From Escherichia phage moha, in sequence record MN850590.1: DNA of 64,000 bases; one strand, 5' to 3'. The stretch's first letter is position 1; each line of letters opens with the position of its first letter. Below are positions 2,375 to 59,501 of the stretch, in pieces. Position numbers and translations under genes: made by a program. Below the pieces are notes generated by a model. It was not told the DNA's origin. It worked only from the letters and a program-made list of their open reading frames with translations, and searched no databases.

Positions 2375-2554
2375 ATGGACCTTATGAGTATGTTTGACGA
2401 GCCTGAAGTTGAGGCTCCTAAAGTGCATCGTAGTGAACTTGTTGATGAACTAGATAGTATTATACAGCGTCATGGATTTAGTTTACCATTAGATGTCCTG
2501 AAAGACCTCGCCTCTTATTATGATGACCCTCCACCATGGAGTCCTTGGAAATGA
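2375..2554 (+). CDS. hypothetical acidic protein
   Basis: ATG with AGGTGA RBS. Confidence 0.4.
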   Translation: MDLMSMFDEPEVEAPKVHRSELVDELDSIIQRHGFSLPLDVLKDLASYYDDPPPWSPWK

Positions 2555-2715
2555 AAGAGAAATTGAAAGAGAAATTCTTACTAGAAATCAAGGAAAAAGA
2601 CTTTGAGACATGGTATCGAATGGTGAAAGGGTTGACATTGCTTTTTAAAGCATCCTTATTCATGTTAGAACAACCTGGTCCTGATGGTCCTTTAGTAGGA
2701 AAGCTTAAAAAGTAG
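2551..2715 (+). CDS. hypothetical small protein
   Basis: ATGA overlap with preceding ORF; 54 codons; not in ORF track. Confidence 0.3.
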   Translation: MKEKLKEKFLLEIKEKDFETWYRMVKGLTLLFKASLFMLEQPGPDGPLVGKLKK

Positions 2716-2743
2716 TTTACATTCCCTCCTCTCGTGTTATGAT
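2715..2743 (+). promoter_or_regulatory. T4-type early promoter
   Basis: GTTTAC, 17 bp spacer, TATGAT. Confidence 0.55.
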
Positions 2744-2770
2744 AGGCTTATCTTTAAATGGAGGTCTATC

Positions 2771-3352
2771 ATGACATGTCAATCTGAACTTCAAGAACGT
2801 GAATACCTAACAAATCTGATTGATAGCAAATTCACCCGCCAAGAACAAAACATTCTCTGGGCTTGCACCGATTCTAAGGAAGACCCGGATTTCCACTATG
2901 AATTAGACCATCTTGTTCGTAAGCATATGACTTCTACAGTACCAGTAGAACTCTACCGTGGTGTAACTCCAGAAGAAGTAGAACGTCTTTCACTTCTTTC
3001 TGTTGGATGCCATTGGTCTCCTGGACGAGTAACATCGTTCACAACTGATTTCAGTACAGCTCGTCAATTCTCTGGGAGATGGGAATATCAGACGTACACT
3101 ATTCTTAGTCTCAGGAATGCTCCATTCATTTTTGATTACTACCAAAACATGATTAACATTGTACTCGCCGGAAAGAACCCTAAGCATGTTATGGAAGAAA
3201 AGCGTGTTGACGTCTTAGATATGATTGAATCCGAACAAGAGTACATGGTCTCAGGTATCTCTAGATTTGAGATTGTGGAAATTGAAGACTTAGAATATGA
3301 CCCTTTATCTCGATTATACAAAATCATTCATTTGAAAATGTTGAATTTTTAG
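2771..3352 (+). CDS. modB: ADP-ribosyltransferase, ModB-like
   Basis: paralog of the next ORF; YRG motif; position between soc and srd as in T4. Confidence 0.55.
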   Translation: MTCQSELQEREYLTNLIDSKFTRQEQNILWACTDSKEDPDFHYELDHLVRKHMTSTVPVELYRGVTPEEVERLSLLSVGCHWSPGRVTSFTTDFSTARQFSGRWEYQTYTILSLRNAPFIFDYYQNMINIVLAGKNPKHVMEEKRVDVLDMIESEQEYMVSGISRFEIVEIEDLEYDPLSRLYKIIHLKMLNF

Positions 3353-3382
3353 TGTACAAACTCTTCCAATGATGATACTATT
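3352..3382 (+). promoter_or_regulatory. T4-type early promoter
   Basis: GTGTACA -35 and GATACTAT -10 region. Confidence 0.5.
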
Positions 3383-3410
3383 ACCTTTATCAACCACAGG
3401 AGAAACCTAA

Positions 3411-4019
3411 ATGTTTATGCCGTATAACGAGTGTGAAATTGAAGAAATGGTTCGTCGTGCTCAAAACCCCGAATATCAAGATGTATTGCAGTACGAAATT
3501 GATAGTCAATTCAGCGACATTGAACAAAGTGTACTGTGGCAGTGTATGGAAAACAAGCCAGACTGTATTCAACAGGAGTTAAGTTCAATCGTTCGTAGAA
3601 ATTGGACGTCTTCTGTTCCTGAGACAATGTATCGTGGAATCTCTAAGAAAACTATGGCCACACTTGATGATAAAGGCATTGGTAGTATTATTAAATTTGA
3701 CAGAGTAATGAGCTTCAGCCCAGTGTTCGGTGTAGCACGTAACTTTGCTTCGTATAATTTTTACGGAACATTTAATATGTTCTGCATCAAAGATGCACCA
3801 TTTGCTTTCAACTTCCGTGAACATATGCTTAACATGATTCTGGCTGCGCCATCTTGTGAGTTCAATGGAGCTTTCCCTGAAGCGACAAGACGGTCTAATG
3901 CTAGACTTATATCCGACGAATGTGAATTTATGCTCCCTATAGGGACTACACTGCGTGTAGATTCTATTATTCAGGATGGACGTTATACAATCTGGAATCT
4001 GTCTATTGTCAGTTACTGA
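3411..4019 (+). CDS. modA: ADP-ribosyltransferase, ModA-like
   Basis: paralog of 2771..3352; YRG motif; position directly upstream of srd. Confidence 0.55.
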   Translation: MFMPYNECEIEEMVRRAQNPEYQDVLQYEIDSQFSDIEQSVLWQCMENKPDCIQQELSSIVRRNWTSSVPETMYRGISKKTMATLDDKGIGSIIKFDRVMSFSPVFGVARNFASYNFYGTFNMFCIKDAPFAFNFREHMLNMILAAPSCEFNGAFPEATRRSNARLISDECEFMLPIGTTLRVDSIIQDGRYTIWNLSIVSY

Positions 4020-4093
4020 CTGAATTGGAATAACCGAATGGAACTCAGAACCATTATAACACATAAAAAATTAAAGCATTTTACGAAAAAAGA

Positions 4094-4122
4094 GTGTACA
4101 CTACCTGAGGGCATGATATTAT
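4094..4122 (+). promoter_or_regulatory. T4-type early promoter
   Basis: GTGTAC, 17 bp spacer, TATTAT. Confidence 0.5.
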
Positions 4123-4172
4123 AAGCTTATCAGCTAAATGACCTTAACGTCCGTAAGACAGAGGAAAATATT

Positions 4173-4919
4173 ATGTTATCAAATAATAAAATTAACAAAA
4201 TCAATCGTCGTCTTGACCACACCAGAGCTTCTGCGAAGAGACGCTCTAAGGATTTTAACTTAGACTTTAATTACCTTAAAAACATTCTTGATCAAAAGGT
4301 CTGCGCTTACTCAGGTGAATCTTTTAATAACTCTGTTGAAGGTGAGAAATTATCCTTAGAACGTTTTAATAATGATATAGGCTACATTAAAGGTAATGTT
4401 ATCCCAGTTAAGAAAAAATATAACACGGCTCGTTCTGATTTAACACTAGAAGAACTTATTGAGAAACGTGACGCTGTTGCAAGACGTATTGCTAATCCTT
4501 CTGCCCGTAAAGTAGAGAAACTTAATCTCGACGAGAAGAAATGGGCCCAAATTAAAAAGGTTTACGGTACTATTTTAAAAATCCGAGCAAAACGTGAAAA
4601 TCGTGTTAAGCATATGGCGAACATGATGAAAAATCAACCTTTATCTAACGAATCTAAACTTAGAATTGTTGCTTTGAAAGCACGCATTAATGGCTCACAT
4701 CAAGCAGAAGGCCATGAACTTACTAAACTCAACGTTCTTCTTAAAGGCTCTGACTGGAAAACTAAAACTAAATTAACTGACGCTGAATCGCTTTTCGATA
4801 CATATGATAAAGTTATCCAAGGTCTGCAACGTTTTGAAAAGATTGGTTTCATTGGTAAATTAAAATTGAAACGTGGCTTACCACTTAGCGCATCATTATT
4901 CCAACTGATTAAAGGTTAA
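4173..4919 (+). CDS. srd: Srd-like protein
   Basis: 248 aa; position between modA and dda.1 as in T4. Confidence 0.5.
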   Translation: MLSNNKINKINRRLDHTRASAKRRSKDFNLDFNYLKNILDQKVCAYSGESFNNSVEGEKLSLERFNNDIGYIKGNVIPVKKKYNTARSDLTLEELIEKRDAVARRIANPSARKVEKLNLDEKKWAQIKKVYGTILKIRAKRENRVKHMANMMKNQPLSNESKLRIVALKARINGSHQAEGHELTKLNVLLKGSDWKTKTKLTDAESLFDTYDKVIQGLQRFEKIGFIGKLKLKRGLPLSASLFQLIKG

Positions 4920-4921
4920 TT

Positions 4922-5233
4922 ATGGTTTATGTATATGCAATAGTTTATCGAGATATGGAAGGATTTACTGTCCCGGTTCCACTTGATGAGCATCGTCCTG
5001 CAGTATTTTTTAGAAAGGATATTGCAGATAAAGTTTTCGATACTTTGAAAACACAGTATAAAACAGATTTAAAAATGGGAGTTCTAAGAATGGTCGAAAC
5101 TCCGCGTAAGTTCTGGTTTAATAAGCTTGAAATGAAACACGTTAAACTAGATGCGGAGACGCAAAGATTGTATCAACGAATCCTAGACACAGGCCGTATT
5201 GTTAGTATTCCAATTGCAGGGACTTTACGATGA
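4922..5233 (+). CDS. hypothetical protein (dda.1 position)
   Basis: 103 aa; ATGA overlap with dda start. Confidence 0.5.
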   Translation: MVYVYAIVYRDMEGFTVPVPLDEHRPAVFFRKDIADKVFDTLKTQYKTDLKMGVLRMVETPRKFWFNKLEMKHVKLDAETQRLYQRILDTGRIVSIPIAGTLR

Positions 5234-6543
5234 CATTTGATGATTTGACTGAAGGCCAGAAAAACGCCTTCAACGTTGTTATGGAAGCTATTAAAGAAAA
5301 GAAACATCATGTAACTATTAATGGACCGGCTGGTACAGGTAAAACAACACTTACTAGATTTATTGTTGAAGCTCTTATTTCTTCAGGAGAATCAGGTATT
5401 ATTTTAGCAGCCCCTACACATGCTGCTAAAAAGGTTCTAAGCAAACTTGCTGGTCAAGAAGCATCGACTATTCATAGCATTCTTAAAATCAACCCAACTA
5501 CATACGAAGAAAACGTATTGTTTGAACAGAAAAAGGTTCCCGACTTAGCCTTGTGTCGTGTACTGTTATTTGATGAAGCGTCAATGTGCGACCGTTCTCT
5601 GTTTAAAATAATGTTAGCTAGTATCCCTAAATGGTGTACAGTAATTGGAATCGGCGACAGATGCCAGATTCGTCCGGTAGACCCAGGCGAATCAACTGCG
5701 TATCTAAGTCCTTTCTTCACTCACAAAGACTTCGTGCAATGCAACCTTACAGAAGTTAAACGTAGCAATGCACCAATTATTGATGTTGCGACTGATATTC
5801 GTAATGGCAAATGGATTTATGATAAAGTAGTTGATGGGCACGGTGTTCATGGATATACAGACCTTAAATCGTATATGATGAACTATTTTAACGTCGTTAA
5901 AACTCCTGAAGACCTTTTCGAAAATCGAATGATGGCATTCACAAATAAGTCGGTGGATAAGTTAAATTCAATTATTCGCCGAAAACTTCTTGAAACAGAA
6001 AAACCATTTATTAAAGACGAAGTCATTGTTCTACAAGAGCCGTTTACTAAGACGTACAAGCTAGATGGTAAAAATATGACCGAAATGCTTTTCAATAACG
6101 GGCAATTCGTTCGTATTCGAGATGCTGTAGAAACGTCTACATTCGTTAAAGCACGTGGTGTTTCAGGCGAATATATGATACGATACTGGAATCTTACAGT
6201 AGAAACATATGGTGATGATGAAGAATACATCCGCGAGGATATAAAGGTTATTTCTTCTGAAGAAGAGCTTTATAAATTCAATTTGTTTTTGGCTAAGACC
6301 GCAGAAACATACAAATTCTGGAATAAAGGTGGTAAAGCCCCATGGAGCGAATTCTGGGATGCTAAACGCATGTTCACTAAGGTGAAGGCACTACCTGTAT
6401 CAACCTTCCATAAGGCCCAGGGTATATCTGTTGACACGGCCTTTGTTTATACACCGTGTATCCATTATGCCGATTCAGAATTAGCCAAACAATTACTATA
6501 TGTCGGCACTACTCGTGGTCGTTTTGACGTCCATTTTATTTGA
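5230..6543 (+). CDS. dda: Dda DNA helicase (SF1B)
   Basis: Walker A NGPAGTGKTT; 437 aa versus T4 Dda 439 aa. Confidence 0.9.
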   Translation: MTFDDLTEGQKNAFNVVMEAIKEKKHHVTINGPAGTGKTTLTRFIVEALISSGESGIILAAPTHAAKKVLSKLAGQEASTIHSILKINPTTYEENVLFEQKKVPDLALCRVLLFDEASMCDRSLFKIMLASIPKWCTVIGIGDRCQIRPVDPGESTAYLSPFFTHKDFVQCNLTEVKRSNAPIIDVATDIRNGKWIYDKVVDGHGVHGYTDLKSYMMNYFNVVKTPEDLFENRMMAFTNKSVDKLNSIIRRKLLETEKPFIKDEVIVLQEPFTKTYKLDGKNMTEMLFNNGQFVRIRDAVETSTFVKARGVSGEYMIRYWNLTVETYGDDEEYIREDIKVISSEEELYKFNLFLAKTAETYKFWNKGGKAPWSEFWDAKRMFTKVKALPVSTFHKAQGISVDTAFVYTPCIHYADSELAKQLLYVGTTRGRFDVHFI

Positions 6544-6552
6544 GAGAAAATT

Positions 6553-7230
6553 ATGAGCACTGATGTTATTATAGATTTTGAAACATTCGGCAATACATCA
6601 AAAGCGGCTGTTATTGACCTTGCGGTTATTGCATATAATTCGGACCCTGAAGTTGTTGAAACATTTGAAGAACTTGTTCAACGAGGTAAGCGAATTAAAT
6701 TTAATTTAGCTTCTCAAAAAGGGAAGCGAGTTTTCGCTAAATCAACTATGAAATGGTGGAAAGAACAATCGGCTGAAGCGCGTAAAAACTTGGCCCCGTC
6801 TGAAGACGATGTCACTACGCTTGAAGGCATTAAAATCTTTTTAGATTATTGTCGAGCTAATAAAGTTGACCAATGGAAATCACAGATGTGGTGCCGTGGT
6901 ATGAGCTTTGACTTCCCGATCTTGGTCGATTTGATTCGTGACCTCTATCGTGATGAAGGTGTTCTTGAACCAGATATTGATACTGATAAATTAGAACCTG
7001 TTAAATTCTGGGCTCAACGTGATATTCGTACGGCAATCGAAGCTTACTCGTTGACACGAGGATTAAGTATGTGTCCATTACCGATGGGTACGCTAAAAGG
7101 ATTCGTTGCTCATGATAGTATTCATGATTGTGCTAAAGATATTTTGATGTTAAAATATGCTCAGCGTTATGCGCTTGGCCTTGAAGATGTCCCTGAGAAT
7201 CCTGACCCGTTAAGTGTAAAACAGCGATAA
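6553..7230 (+). CDS. dexA: exonuclease A (DEDD/DnaQ-like 3'-5' exonuclease)
   Basis: IIDFETFG Exo I motif; 225 aa; directly downstream of dda. Confidence 0.8.
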   Translation: MSTDVIIDFETFGNTSKAAVIDLAVIAYNSDPEVVETFEELVQRGKRIKFNLASQKGKRVFAKSTMKWWKEQSAEARKNLAPSEDDVTTLEGIKIFLDYCRANKVDQWKSQMWCRGMSFDFPILVDLIRDLYRDEGVLEPDIDTDKLEPVKFWAQRDIRTAIEAYSLTRGLSMCPLPMGTLKGFVAHDSIHDCAKDILMLKYAQRYALGLEDVPENPDPLSVKQR

Positions 7231-57061: not shown

Positions 57062-59149
57062 ATGTCTGAACAAATAAACGAAGTGTTTGAATCTGAAGGC
57101 AGTCTTCCTGTCGTCAATTTGAACCCTAAAGCTAAAGTTCCACAAGTCTGGAAAATTGGTGATATCGATACAAATATTGTAGTTCGTTTATTCTCTTACC
57201 TTTCCGAAGGCGACGCTGTAAAACAAGTTAAACTTGGCGACAAATACGCTCATGTTGTTATTATGAGTCTGTCTGAAAAGGGTAATCTCGCTGAATTGAA
57301 AAATGGCCTTGGTCCTGCTCCTATTGATGCAATCAACACCATTTTCAATACAGTATATGAACAAGTTAAAGCTCTTCGTATGGATGCAGTTCTGTTCCGA
57401 TTCCCTACCAAGAAATTGAAAGGACGTGGACAACAGCTTCAAACTCTTCTTGCTCGTTTAGTTTCTACTAAAACCGGTGGTCGTTTTAAAGTATTGTCGG
57501 CAATGTATCAATTCACAGGTAAACACACCTATGTGATGATGGTTCGTAAAAATGCCAACATTGAAGATATTAAAGGCATCCCTAACATTAACACAGAGTT
57601 GTACACGAAAGTAGATTCTGATGTTGGCGAAGTTTATGTGAGTAAAAAGACTGGCGAAACGGTTACCAAAGAAACTGCTATCGCTGGTTCTATTGCCGCG
57701 GTAGAAGAAAAACGTAAAGATAAGCCTGTTATTGCTCGCACCAAAATTTCTCGTCGTGCTATTGCAGCAAGTCAATCTTTAGAAGCTGACCGACAAGAAG
57801 GTGAGTTATTCCAGAAATACGAAAATTCTGCTAAAGAAGTTAGTGGCCCAGCTACAGCCGAATTACTTCCTGAAGCATATGAAATCGTACTAGCCCAAGC
57901 ATCGTCCACAGCAAAAGGCACTTTAGTTGCTGATATCGAAAATAAGATTTATAATCGTATTGATGAATCCTTTAAATTTGCTGATGAAGTTTCTTATGGT
58001 AGTGTTATTAAGCCGACTTTAGAAAAGTTTGCTAAGAAAATTAAAACCGAAAAAACAACATCTGTTAAAGCATTAGCTGCTTTTGTTGAAGCTGCAAATG
58101 AAATTGCAGACTCTATTAAAGACGAATGGTTTGAAGATTTTAGACGTGATAATTTCCAATTGCCTGACGACGTTTTAGCTGAAGTATCTGAAAGAACTTG
58201 GAAACAACGTAAATCAGCGTTCTTGTCTAATGTGATGTATACTTATGCACGAGAATCGGCTAGAGGCACCTTTAATATAACAATGAATCGGGACCCTAAA
58301 CAATACTCTGTTGCTGAAAAACGAGCTATTCGCGAATATGCCTCTTCTGCGTATACCGATATCAATAATATGTTGTTAGGCCGGTATAAACCGGATTTTT
58401 ATGATGTTGCAGATGAAGATGAAGTTAAACGCGCTATTGATGGTCTTGATTCGGCGTTTTTAAATGGAGACCGTTTACCTGAAGGACTAACGTTGTATAG
58501 AGCCCAGTCTATCAGAATGCCTATTTACGAAGCAATGGTTAAAAATAAGGTATTCTACTTCAGAAACTATGTTTCTACTTCATTAGCTCCTATTATTTTT
58601 GGTGGGTTTAAAGAGAACGTTGCCCTTGGACTTGCTCCTGAAGAAGTTCGCAAAGAGCTTAACATTGACAATAATGACGAAGGTGTTACTATTTCTCCTA
58701 GTCAAGTAAGAACAGCTATGCATGCACCAGAACAAATCCGTGTTAACGTTGGATGGGCTATCGATGGCGCCCATAAAGTTAACGTGATTTACCCGGGTCA
58801 GTTGAGTAATCACCCTAATGAGCAAGAAATTATTTTGCCTAGAGGCATTCTCTTGCAGATAAATAAAATTACAGATGCGTCATCTGACACTGGTGCAGGT
58901 TTAGAATCCAACCTTAAATTTATTCAAGCTGAAGTCATGTCCTCGGACCAGTTGGACGAAGCTGTCATTTACGATGGTGATGTTCTCATGGAAACAGGCG
59001 AGGTAGTTGCTATGACGGGTGAAATCGAATCAGATGAGCCGGTATCTTTTGCCTCATTTGTAGAAAAAACTAGTGCACCTAAAGGTTTGAAATTGTTAGC
59101 ATCTTTAATGGATTTAGAATCAGTTCCGTTTAAATTTATCCAAGGATAG
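57062..59149 (+). CDS. alt: Alt-like ADP-ribosyltransferase (virion-packaged)
   Basis: 695 aa (T4 Alt 682); position between ligase 30 and baseplate gene 54. Confidence 0.7.
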   Translation: MSEQINEVFESEGSLPVVNLNPKAKVPQVWKIGDIDTNIVVRLFSYLSEGDAVKQVKLGDKYAHVVIMSLSEKGNLAELKNGLGPAPIDAINTIFNTVYEQVKALRMDAVLFRFPTKKLKGRGQQLQTLLARLVSTKTGGRFKVLSAMYQFTGKHTYVMMVRKNANIEDIKGIPNINTELYTKVDSDVGEVYVSKKTGETVTKETAIAGSIAAVEEKRKDKPVIARTKISRRAIAASQSLEADRQEGELFQKYENSAKEVSGPATAELLPEAYEIVLAQASSTAKGTLVADIENKIYNRIDESFKFADEVSYGSVIKPTLEKFAKKIKTEKTTSVKALAAFVEAANEIADSIKDEWFEDFRRDNFQLPDDVLAEVSERTWKQRKSAFLSNVMYTYARESARGTFNITMNRDPKQYSVAEKRAIREYASSAYTDINNMLLGRYKPDFYDVADEDEVKRAIDGLDSAFLNGDRLPEGLTLYRAQSIRMPIYEAMVKNKVFYFRNYVSTSLAPIIFGGFKENVALGLAPEEVRKELNIDNNDEGVTISPSQVRTAMHAPEQIRVNVGWAIDGAHKVNVIYPGQLSNHPNEQEIILPRGILLQINKITDASSDTGAGLESNLKFIQAEVMSSDQLDEAVIYDGDVLMETGEVVAMTGEIESDEPVSFASFVEKTSAPKGLKLLASLMDLESVPFKFIQG

Positions 59150-59179
59150 TTTACAAACACATGGATGTGTGATACTATC
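59149..59179 (+). promoter_or_regulatory. T4-type early promoter
   Basis: GTTTACA, spacer palindrome cacatggatgtg, TACTAT. Confidence 0.5.
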
Positions 59180-59207
59180 ATCCAATCAACAACATGAGGA
59201 AAACGTT

Positions 59208-59501
59208 ATGAAATCTATGCTTCGCTTTAATGGTCAAGAACTAGTAGTTGAAGATGTTATCCCGGCAGATGATGTTTTTAACGAAGCTGTGATTGACGAA
59301 TTGAATCGAGTATTCCCAGGTGCATTCCATATTGCTATGGAACCTCTTAAAAACTTTCGTGACCCTGAGCACACTGATCAAATTTTTGTCGGTGTAGTGA
59401 CAGGTCATTTAGAAACAGAGGTACCAATGGTCGTATTAGTTAAATACTCTAAAGATGATACTCCATTCCGAGCACCAGCATTCCTTTCATTCCGTAAATA
59501 A
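59208..59501 (+). CDS. hypothetical protein
   Basis: 97 aa from ATG 59208. Confidence 0.45.
   Translation: MKSMLRFNGQELVVEDVIPADDVFNEAVIDELNRVFPGAFHIAMEPLKNFRDPEHTDQIFVGVVTGHLETEVPMVVLVKYSKDDTPFRAPAFLSFRK

Follow-up and report, generated by a model that had tools for sequence, protein, structure and literature searches.

[quoted passage not shown] The stretch of DNA analysed here ("the window") comprises 64,000 nucleotides of sequence record MN850590.1. A preliminary description had taken ORF1 (193 aa) and ORF2 (202 aa) for paralogous ADP-ribosyltransferase-like genes in the modB/modA position, and had named a large alt gene as the third of this kind in the window. All three reading frames are present on the plus strand (Table 1). 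According to our analysis ORF1 and ORF2 very probably encode Mosigvirus Mod-family arginine-specific mono-ADP-ribosyltransferases of the R-S-E clade, which stem from an old tandem duplication, with ORF1 as the ModB-type copy and ORF2 as the copy in the ModA position.

Table 1. Features of the Mod locus and of alt in the window (columns: feature, position, strand, basis).
Promoter-like site upstream of ORF1: TTTACA, 16-nt spacer, TATGAT; TG before -10, G before -35	2716..2743	+	pattern match
Shine-Dalgarno GGAGG of ORF1, 7 nt before ATG	2760..2764	+	sequence reading
ORF1, 193 aa, predicted ModB-type Mod-family mono-ADP-ribosyltransferase, upstream "modB" position	2771..3352	+	ORF, PHROG 832, T4 ModB homology
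ORF1 Arg63 codon (Y-R-G), equivalent to T4 ModB R73	2957..2959	+	alignment, codon check
ORF1 S89-F-T91, S-x-S/T motif	3035..3043	+	alignment, codon check
ORF1 E155-Q-E157, ExE motif; E157 equivalent to T4 ModB E173	3233..3241	+	alignment, codon check
Spacer ORF1-ORF2, 58 nt	3353..3410	+	sequence reading
Shine-Dalgarno AGGAG of ORF2, 9 nt upstream	3398-3402	+	sequence reading
ORF2, 202 aa, predicted Mod-family mono-ADP-ribosyltransferase, downstream "modA" position beside srd	3411..4019	+	ORF, PHROG 832, T4 homology
ORF2 Arg75 codon (Y-R-G)	3633..3635	+	alignment, codon check
ORF2 S101-F-S103, S-x-S motif	3711..3719	+	alignment, codon check
ORF2 E170-C-E172, ExE motif	3918..3926	+	alignment, codon check
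alt, 695 aa, predicted Alt-type ADP-ribosyltransferase	57062..59149	+	ORF, PF03496, PHROG 802
Alt R480	58499-58501	+	alignment, codon check
Alt S505-T-S507	58574-58582	+	alignment, codon check
Alt E587-Q-E589, ExE motif	58820-58828	+	alignment, codon check

The window derives from a Mosigvirus, an RB69-like T-even phage, and shows ~99% nucleotide identity to deposited genomes. Shigella phage JK36 is 99.2% identical, and its deposited annotation agrees with the coordinates of ORF1 and ORF2. In Mosigvirus genomes of 99% nucleotide identity these genes carry labels such as ADP-ribosylase, RNA polymerase ADP-ribosylase and modB, and in RB69 itself modB is annotated at this locus. The order of genes is that of T4, i.e. 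gene 56, soc, mrh, a modA.2 homologue (E=1e-13), ORF1, ORF2, srd (PHROG match, E=1.6e-99), dda.1, dda and dexA. Comparison of the window with T4, JK36, C6, VR26 and LF82-9, the last of which carries both Mod genes, revealed that the slot between modA.2 and srd, within the early region from gene 56 to dda, is conserved. Synteny with T4 hence bears out the modB/modA position proposed for the pair. An antisense frame of 159 aa (3585-4064), wholly opposite ORF2 and its downstream spacer, matches no PHROG family and looks like a product of chance. Scans of the whole window for tRNAs and Rfam families found nothing.

Both proteins can be assigned to the Mod family as homologues of T4 ModA and ModB. 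PHROG 832 ("RNA polymerase ADP-ribosylase") is matched by ORF1 at E=4e-38 and by ORF2 at E=1.5e-37. ORF1 aligns with T4 ModB at 37.5% identity (E=3e-27, 89.7 bits) and with T4 ModA at E=9e-10 (42 bits), while the corresponding values for ORF2 are E=2e-33 (106 bits) for T4 ModB and, in a full-length alignment with 30% identity, E=6e-20 (70.5 bits) for T4 ModA. By raw similarity, both window proteins are nearer to T4 ModB than to T4 ModA. Mod homologues are encoded in ~1,000 phage records, and each of the two genes occurs at >=90% protein identity in more than 130 deposited genomes; ORF1 is 100% identical to a gene of phage FL31 and ORF2 to a gene of phage WFL6982. The local Pfam and NCBIfam libraries returned no family for ORF1 or ORF2. 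This result is not evidence against membership in the Mod family, since the family model PF26816, the precomputed Pfam family of all 51 database homologues, is evidently absent from that Pfam copy.

The preliminary description had proposed an alignment of the catalytic R-S-E residues, and in such an alignment with T4 ModA, T4 ModB and RB51 Alt the Arg, Ser and Glu are present in ORF1, ORF2 and Alt alike. In the two Mod proteins the catalytic set aligns with R73, S99 and E171/E173 of T4 ModB and with R72, S94 and E163/E165 of T4 ModA, and 53/53 aligned Mod-family sequences share R, G, S, E and E without variation. ORF1 and ORF2 both carry ExE, not QxE. Among R-S-E transferases, ExE rather than QxE goes along with arginine specificity. 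In two reports (PMC10468400; bioRxiv 10.1101/2025.07.11.664405), R73 of T4 ModB is described as required for NAD binding and activity, and R73 and E173 are reported as functionally important.

Sequence searches against the PDB, using single sequences as well as a 51-sequence profile, gave sub-threshold matches only (XopAI and Vis at the ExE region, E 0.07-0.25), because no structures of Mod proteins have been solved, and a comparison of folds was therefore needed. AlphaFold models were obtained with a pLDDT of 89.8 for ORF1 and 94.8 for ORF2. At E up to 0.001, Foldseek found 88 matches in the PDB for ORF1 and 95 for ORF2, and the 50 matches listed for each model are R-S-E ADP-ribosyltransferases without exception (50/50). 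The best match of ORF1 is Certhrax (4fk7, E=3e-6), and the matches of ORF2 include CDTa, iota toxin Ia, C3 and HopU1 (E ~1e-5). Both models also superpose on viral ModA and ModB models from BFVD with TM 0.85-0.86 (ORF2 on Tequatrovirus ModA: 0.86). For both Mod proteins an ADP-ribosyltransferase fold is predicted.

The suggested paralogy of the two genes holds: ORF1 and ORF2 share 33% identity over 147 residues (BLASTP, E=1e-26), far beyond chance. The shared blocks named in the preliminary description stand in part. Q[NS]xLWxC is common to both proteins; VPxExYRG occurs in ORF1 alone, the common form being VPxxxYRG; and YxxxG, although present in both, is found at non-homologous positions (158 vs 115) and does not constitute a shared block. 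Isoelectric point and net charge do not discriminate between the paralogues, all four proteins being acidic. In a neighbour-joining tree with 100 bootstraps ORF1 and ORF2 were never grouped together (0/100), so the duplication must be old. The same value rules out a recent independent duplication within Mosigvirus, and an independent duplication in T4 is unsupported (ModA and ModB grouped in 1/100 bootstraps).

Assigning each copy to one of the T4 genes is a separate matter. A clade of the downstream copies, including ORF2 and leaving T4 ModA aside, was recovered in 100/100 bootstraps, and with T4 ModA added in 22/100. The upstream copies as a whole formed a strict clade in 1/100 bootstraps only, because single-copy genes of other genera interleave. 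Profile scores favour orthology of the downstream copies with T4 ModA. T4 ModB reaches 162.9 bits on a profile of ModB and single-copy proteins vs 121.7 bits on the downstream-clade profile, and T4 ModA 95.0 bits on the downstream-clade profile vs 79.6 bits on the ModB/single-copy profile, a preference of 15 bits; a second ModA-like protein (P0017) prefers the downstream-clade profile by 11 bits. The 282 bits of ORF1 on the ModB/single-copy profile are partly circular, as this profile included P0003, which is 97% identical to ORF1. ORF1 is the ModB-type copy, judged by its sequence and its upstream position. The equivalence of ORF2 to T4 ModA is uncertain, resting on synteny and the 15-bit profile preference and not on support from the tree. 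Outside Tequatrovirus, the labels ModA and ModB owe more to the location of the gene than to its sequence.

This leaves room for a scenario in which both enzymes are active and the ORF2 clade of Mosig-, Dhaka- and Gapriverviruses forms a lineage apart, ModB-like, with its own set of targets and functionally not T4 ModA. Modification of RNA polymerase alpha may then fall to Alt alone, or neither Mod enzyme may carry it out. The higher score of T4 ModB over T4 ModA against ORF2 and the best match of ORF2 in Tequatrovirus genomes, which falls on modB, speak for such a lineage, but the long branch of T4 ModA by itself explains low pairwise scores. The 22/100 bootstraps for T4 ModA within the ORF2 clade likewise fit this scenario; set against them are the preferences of T4 ModA and P0017 for the profile of that very clade, and the near-absent grouping of T4 ModA with T4 ModB, which gives no sign of an independent T4 duplication. 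Finally, T4 modB and modA overlap by 4 nt whereas ORF1 and ORF2 are 58 nt apart, yet the srd-adjacent position of the downstream gene is identical in both phage groups. Weighing these points, we regard a separate lineage that is not ModA-equivalent as unlikely. It is also doubtful, slightly more so, that the downstream copy of these three genera represents a third type of Mod enzyme, distinct in function and with a target other than Arg265 of RNA polymerase alpha. If this were true, targets would have diverged within the T-even Mod family separately in each lineage, and the natural loss of the ModB-type gene from some isolates would point to a turnover still under way. For our preferred reading of ORF2 as the copy in the ModA position, the 22/100 bootstraps make it uncertain whether the RNA polymerase alpha target carries over.

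Both genes are under purifying selection, with dN/dS values of 0.11 (ORF1) and 0.14 (ORF2) next to 0.08 for the neighbouring srd. A direct search with the deletion junction identified a ~503-bp deletion of the ModB-type gene in >=8 Mosigvirus isolates, PHB12 among them, and the gene is therefore dispensable at least in those isolates. Phage p000v, too, is a natural isolate in which the ModB-type gene is deleted. Phage ZQ3, moreover, encodes a ModA-type protein (P0005) from which 17 internal residues are missing. In T4 the mod genes are non-essential, and deletion of modA leaves the shut-off of early transcription unchanged (PMC2988021). These losses, and the dispensability in T4, would fit a reading in which one copy is decaying or catalytically dead (a pseudoenzyme or a gene being lost) while the other alone works. 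In the window, however, both genes are of full length and keep all invariant family residues including R-S-ExE, both folds are confidently predicted, the dN/dS values lie near that of srd, and each gene persists at high identity in the more than 130 genomes mentioned above. A dead copy is thus highly improbable here, and two functional genes remain our preferred reading. For studying the part that the ModB-type enzyme plays in infection, natural Mosigvirus isolates without its gene are already at hand.

Putative signals for expression accompany the pair. A promoter-like site upstream of ORF1 shows 10/12 consensus matches and an extended -10 in a consensus scan with 8 hits of this kind in the region vs 6.5 expected by chance; the site resembles the -35 consensus GTTTAC of T4-type early promoters (PMC1524935). 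The spacer between the ORFs also holds a weak promoter-like sequence (TGTACA-17-TGaTACTAT), seen by eye only and under the threshold of the scan. We infer that ORF1 and ORF2 are most likely early genes. The idea that both are chance reading frames, or that their similarity is compositional, can call on nothing but the missing local Pfam/NCBIfam family, the one weak point, and is refuted by homology (pairwise E=1e-26, PHROG E ~1e-38, ~1,000 phage records with homologues) together with Shine-Dalgarno sequences, purifying selection and confident folds for both genes.

The count of three ADP-ribosyltransferase-like genes in the window was confirmed. Searches of all 249 stop-to-stop ORFs (>=60 aa) with an HMM of the Mod family and with the catalytic domain of Alt, thus covering the Mod and Alt families, yielded only ORF1, ORF2 and Alt. 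Alt belongs to the Alt/VIP2 family. Pfam PF03496 (ADPrib_exo_Tox) scores 97.8 bits over its residues 413-610 (gathering cut-off 23.4), and PHROG 802 matches residues 1-694 of 695 at E=8e-261. The protein is 99.9% identical to the annotated alt product of mar005P1 and 46% identical to RB51 Alt over 700 columns, with full collinearity that includes the non-catalytic N-terminal part (BLASTP). Its motifs align with those of RB51 Alt (blocks YRAQS, VSTSL and E-A-E), and alt is flanked by DNA ligase gene 30 and baseplate gene 54, an arrangement shared with RB51. A phmmer search of the PDB found no solved relative of Alt. Taken by its sequence, Alt is a full-length orthologue of Tequatrovirus Alt.

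The searched literature contained no biochemical data on Mosigvirus Mod proteins. Homology, catalytic residues, predicted fold, synteny and selection are our observations, and it is the enzyme activity and the targets that we infer. ORF1 and ORF2 probably bind NAD+ via the conserved Arg and the Ser-x-Ser/Thr motif, and Glu-x-Glu probably catalyses the transfer of ADP-ribose to the side chains of arginines in host proteins. In T4, Alt is carried in the capsid and enters the cell together with the DNA (PMC2988021; PMC9503650); by analogy, a capsid-borne, injected Alt would begin to modify RNA polymerase before any phage gene is expressed. T4 ModA almost exclusively modifies Arg265 on both RNA polymerase alpha subunits (PMC2988021), and ORF2 would act on the same residue of both subunits if it behaved like its T4 counterpart. 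T4 ModB ADP-ribosylates or RNAylates S1, EF-Tu, trigger factor and L2 (PMC10468400; PMC2988021); its RNAylation of S1 and L2 was assayed with NAD-capped RNA (PMC10468400). On this model ORF1 would act on proteins connected with translation, for example S1 of the ribosome, trigger factor and EF-Tu, and it might also link NAD-capped RNA to these proteins. To assign RNA polymerase alpha to an RB69-like ModA, or the attachment of RNA to proteins to an RB69-like ModB, is an extrapolation from T4. The suggestion that ORF1 and ORF2 may differ in their targets is a reasonable one, because the T4 Mod paralogues have different targets (PMC2988021).

As the preliminary description had put it, this is known T4 biology. 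The three genes are the ordinary ModB-type, ModA-position and Alt genes of an RB69-like phage. The finding is correct but not new, since the genes are already annotated in GenBank, and beyond correct annotation it is of little importance, Alt, ModA and ModB being textbook enzymes of T4 host takeover.

Compared with T4 ModB (UniProt P39423, 207 aa), ORF1 occupies the equivalent upstream slot after the modA.2 homologue, has the Y-R-G, S-F-T and E-Q-E motifs and the predicted fold in common with it, and belongs to a clade that is joined by T4 ModB and by the single-copy Mod genes from other genera. In contrast to T4 ModB, the N-terminus of ORF1 is shorter and the insertion before the ExE region is missing, and ORF1 is nearer to the single-copy Mod proteins of Klebsiella, Enterobacter and Salmonella phages (41-48% identity) than to T4 ModB. 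Because identity to T4 ModB is only 37.5%, the RNAylation ability and the target set of T4 ModB may not carry over. ORF2 sits in the slot equivalent to that of T4 ModA (UniProt P39421, 200 aa), directly upstream of srd, and R-S-ExE is conserved, while W-R-G and S-A-S of T4 ModA are replaced by Y-R-G and S-F-S in ORF2. RB51 Alt (697 aa) has the R, S-T-S and E-x-E motifs in common with the window Alt. The window holds a single alt followed by a 110-aa ORF, whereas in Tequatrovirus RB51 a second large ORF, alt.-2, lies downstream; T4 possesses the alt paralogues alt.-1 and alt.-2 (PMC1524935). The bacterial R-S-E toxins (C3 exoenzyme, iota toxin Ia, CDTa, VIP2, Certhrax, HopU1, XopAI and Vis) resemble the Mod proteins in their predicted catalytic fold and in the R / S-x-S / ExE layout of the active site, yet identity amounts to only 10-17% and TM to ~0.45-0.55. 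A delivery or binding component was not noted at the Mod locus, and the Mod proteins, unlike these toxins, have their own N-terminal helical region. The toxins are secreted, whereas the Mod proteins are most likely phage early proteins and made within the host.

Our analysis confirms the observation that two adjacent plus-strand genes of the window, ORF1 (ModB-type) and ORF2 (ModA-type), encode ADP-ribosyltransferase-like proteins, and it supports the interpretation given in the preliminary description, whose coordinates for both genes were exact. Megablast of 2500-4300 placed the window in Mosigvirus, the RB69-like T-even phages that infect E. coli and Shigella (99.7% identity to phage NicPhage, 99.2% to Shigella phage JK36). 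In these two and many other records both genes are labelled 'ADP-ribosylase', 'modB' or 'RNA polymerase ADP-ribosylase', and identical copies of the ORF1 and ORF2 proteins are deposited in phages FL31 and WFL6982, respectively. The feature formed by ORF1, ORF2 and Alt is ordinary and annotated already. An antisense ORF of 159 aa (3585-4064, minus strand) overlaps ORF2; it is unannotated in the JK36 record, found no family match in a PHROG search and is most likely a chance ORF.

Features of the mod and alt regions of the window
Feature	Position	Strand	Remarks
ModA.2 homologue	2375-2554	+	59 aa; E=1e-13 to T4 ModA.2; PHROG 1647, function unknown
Promoter-like site	2716-2743		just 5' of ORF1; resembles T4 early-promoter -35 consensus, pattern match only
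ORF1	2771-3352	+	193 aa; GGAGG Shine-Dalgarno upstream, normal spacing
ORF2	3411-4019	+	202 aa; AGGAG Shine-Dalgarno upstream, normal spacing
Promoter-like site	4095-4122		5' of srd; resembles T4 early-promoter -35 consensus, pattern match only
srd	4173-4919	+	Srd family PHROG, E=1.6e-99
alt	57062-59149		695 aa; Pfam ADPrib_exo_Tox, 97.8 bits (cut-off 23.4)
ORF after alt	59169-59501	+	110 aa; PHROG 1739, function unknown; sole ORF before gene 54

The paralogy of ORF1 and ORF2 is real, since the two proteins share 33% identity over 147 residues (E=1e-26). Among the blocks they had been said to have in common, Q[NS]xLWxC stands, 'VPxExYRG' is exact in ORF1 only (the common form is VPxxxYRG), and 'YxxxG', though it occurs in both proteins, has to be dropped as its positions are non-homologous. 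Both proteins match PHROG 832 'RNA polymerase ADP-ribosylase' (E about 1e-38) as well as T4 ModB and ModA from the T4 reference locus L001 (ORF1: E=3e-27 and 9e-10; ORF2: E=2e-33 and 6e-20). The catalytic R-S-E residues are present in both, namely Y-R63-G, S89-F-T and E155-Q-E157 in ORF1 and Y-R75-G, S101-F-S and E170-C-E172 in ORF2, aligned with R73, S99 and E171/E173 of ModB and with R72, S94 and E163/E165 of ModA. In the R-S-E clade, ExE rather than QxE accompanies arginine as acceptor, and both window proteins have ExE, not QxE. PMC10468400 and bioRxiv 10.1101/2025.07.11.664405 (both citing Tiemann et al. 2004) describe an R-S-EXE active site in both ModA and ModB; in ModB, R73 is required to bind NAD and for activity, and E173 is essential for catalysis. 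The arginine, glycine, serine and both glutamates are invariant across a 53-member family alignment, the members of which were drawn from a search of 5.8 billion proteins.

No model in local copies of Pfam and NCBIfam matched ORF1 or ORF2, and sequence-only PDB searches with the Mod proteins gave sub-threshold matches only; PF26816 is the precomputed family on all database homologues of the Mod proteins. AlphaFold2 models built from a 51-sequence alignment were confident (pLDDT 94.8 for ORF2, 89.8 for ORF1). A Foldseek search of the PDB (E up to 0.001) gave 95 matches with the ORF2 model and 88 with the ORF1 model, and the best 50 of each were all R-S-E-clade ADP-ribosyltransferases; the matches listed include C3 exoenzyme, iota toxin Ia, CDTa, VIP2, Certhrax, HopU1, XopAI, Vis and Tre1. 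Among predicted viral structures, the ORF2 model reached TM 0.85 to 'ModB' of Serratia phage CBH8 and 0.86 to 'ModA' of Tequatrovirus Sf22.

The genes of the window follow one another as in T4, read in the direction of transcription: gene 56 dCTPase, soc, small ORFs, an mrh-like gene, the ModA.2 homologue, a small ORF, ORF1, ORF2, srd, dda.1, dda, dexA. ORF1 therefore occupies the modB slot and ORF2 the modA slot, as proposed. Orthology was tested explicitly because raw scores placed both proteins nearer ModB than ModA. In a comparison set of 12 other phages, Tequatro-, Mosig-, Dhaka- and Gapriverviruses carry two mod copies in the same order, and Gelderland-, Kanagawa-, Karam-, Winkler- and Krischviruses and Klebsiella phage Roth01 carry one, before srd. 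In a position-labelled neighbour-joining tree (100 bootstraps) the Mosig-, Dhaka- and Gaprivervirus downstream copies fall into one clade (100/100), which T4 ModA, on a long branch, enters in only 22/100. ORF1 and ORF2 pair up in 0/100 and T4 ModA and ModB in 1/100, so the duplication is old and not lineage-specific. In an independent test with one profile per clade, T4 proteins left out, the downstream-copy profile scored T4 ModA at 95.0 bits and T4 ModB at 121.7, and the ModB/single-copy profile scored them at 79.6 and 162.9 bits, respectively. Taken together, position and reciprocal profile preference favour a ModB-type assignment for ORF1 and a ModA-type one for ORF2; the link between ORF2 and ModA is less strong than GenBank labels imply.

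T4 modB and modA share 4 nt (L001 4008-4011), whereas a 58-nt gap (3353-3410) separates the window genes; in Mosig-, Dhaka- and Gapriverviruses, unlike T4, about 47-58 nt lie between the two genes, and this spacer contains a Shine-Dalgarno of its own. The spacer also bears a weak promoter-like TGTACA-17-TGaTACTAT element, and the two signals together hint that the genes may be under separate expression control. Promoter-like sites in the region number close to shuffle expectation. The ModA.2 homologue is labelled 'molybdenum ABC transporter, periplasmic molybdenum-binding protein ModA' in several deposited genomes, evidently a gene-name collision spread by automated annotation. The N-terminal 100-150 residues of Srd also match PHROGs annotated as endonuclease, HNH endonuclease and endonuclease VII (E=4e-18 to 4e-11), and the Roth01 orthologue is annotated 'HNH endonuclease'.

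Comparison with the diverged Mosigvirus LF82-9, at 93% nucleotide identity, gave dN/dS values of 0.11 (ORF1) and 0.14 (ORF2), near the 0.08 of srd, which argues that both genes are kept by selection. Some isolates can nevertheless dispense with the ModB-type gene: PHB12 carries a ~503-bp internal deletion (window 2815-3317) that leaves a 17-codon stub, and its junction (2343-2347 of PHB12 locus L009) is present, unbroken and as a single match, in no fewer than eight distinct isolates (PHB12, phi25-307, p000v, SSE1, S143_2, ZQ3, EP02SG, HY126), which are natural ModB-null phages. The ModA-type protein of phage vB_EcoM-ZQ3 (P0005, 185 aa) is without a 17-residue internal segment, FAFNFREHMLNMILAAP (window equivalent about 3798-3848). 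Because ZQ3 also bears the ModB-type deletion, it may be without either functional Mod enzyme, or its record may contain an assembly error.

The Alt PHROG matches window Alt along its whole length (E=8e-261), and the protein shares 99.9% identity with the product annotated as alt in mar005P1. It is collinear with Alt of Tequatrovirus RB51 at 46% identity, and R480, S505-T-S507 and E587-x-E589 lie within conserved blocks of that alignment, so the R-S-ExE residues are present here too. The count of three ADP-ribosyltransferase-like genes holds, as no further ORF of this kind emerged when the 64-kb window was searched with the Mod-family HMM and the Alt catalytic domain. As in RB51, alt is located between gene 30 (DNA ligase) and gene 54 (baseplate); RB51 has a 685-aa alt.-2 ORF after alt (4601-6658 of its alt locus, L015), whereas the window has just the 110-aa ORF, and Mosigviruses therefore have a single Alt. 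In T4, alt.-1 and alt.-2 are alt paralogues (PMC1524935).

The analysis establishes homology, synteny and purifying selection, together with intact active-site residues and a predicted fold; the searchable literature yielded no enzyme activity or target tests on Mosigvirus proteins, and carrying target specificities over from T4 would span 30-37% identity. By analogy with T4 (PMC2988021, PMC10468400, PMC9503650), Alt would enter with the DNA and modify one RNA polymerase alpha subunit and other proteins, the early ModA-position enzyme would then finish the Arg265 modification on both alpha subunits, and the ModB-type enzyme would modify ribosomal protein S1, EF-Tu, trigger factor and related proteins, to which, as in T4, it may also join NAD-capped RNAs.
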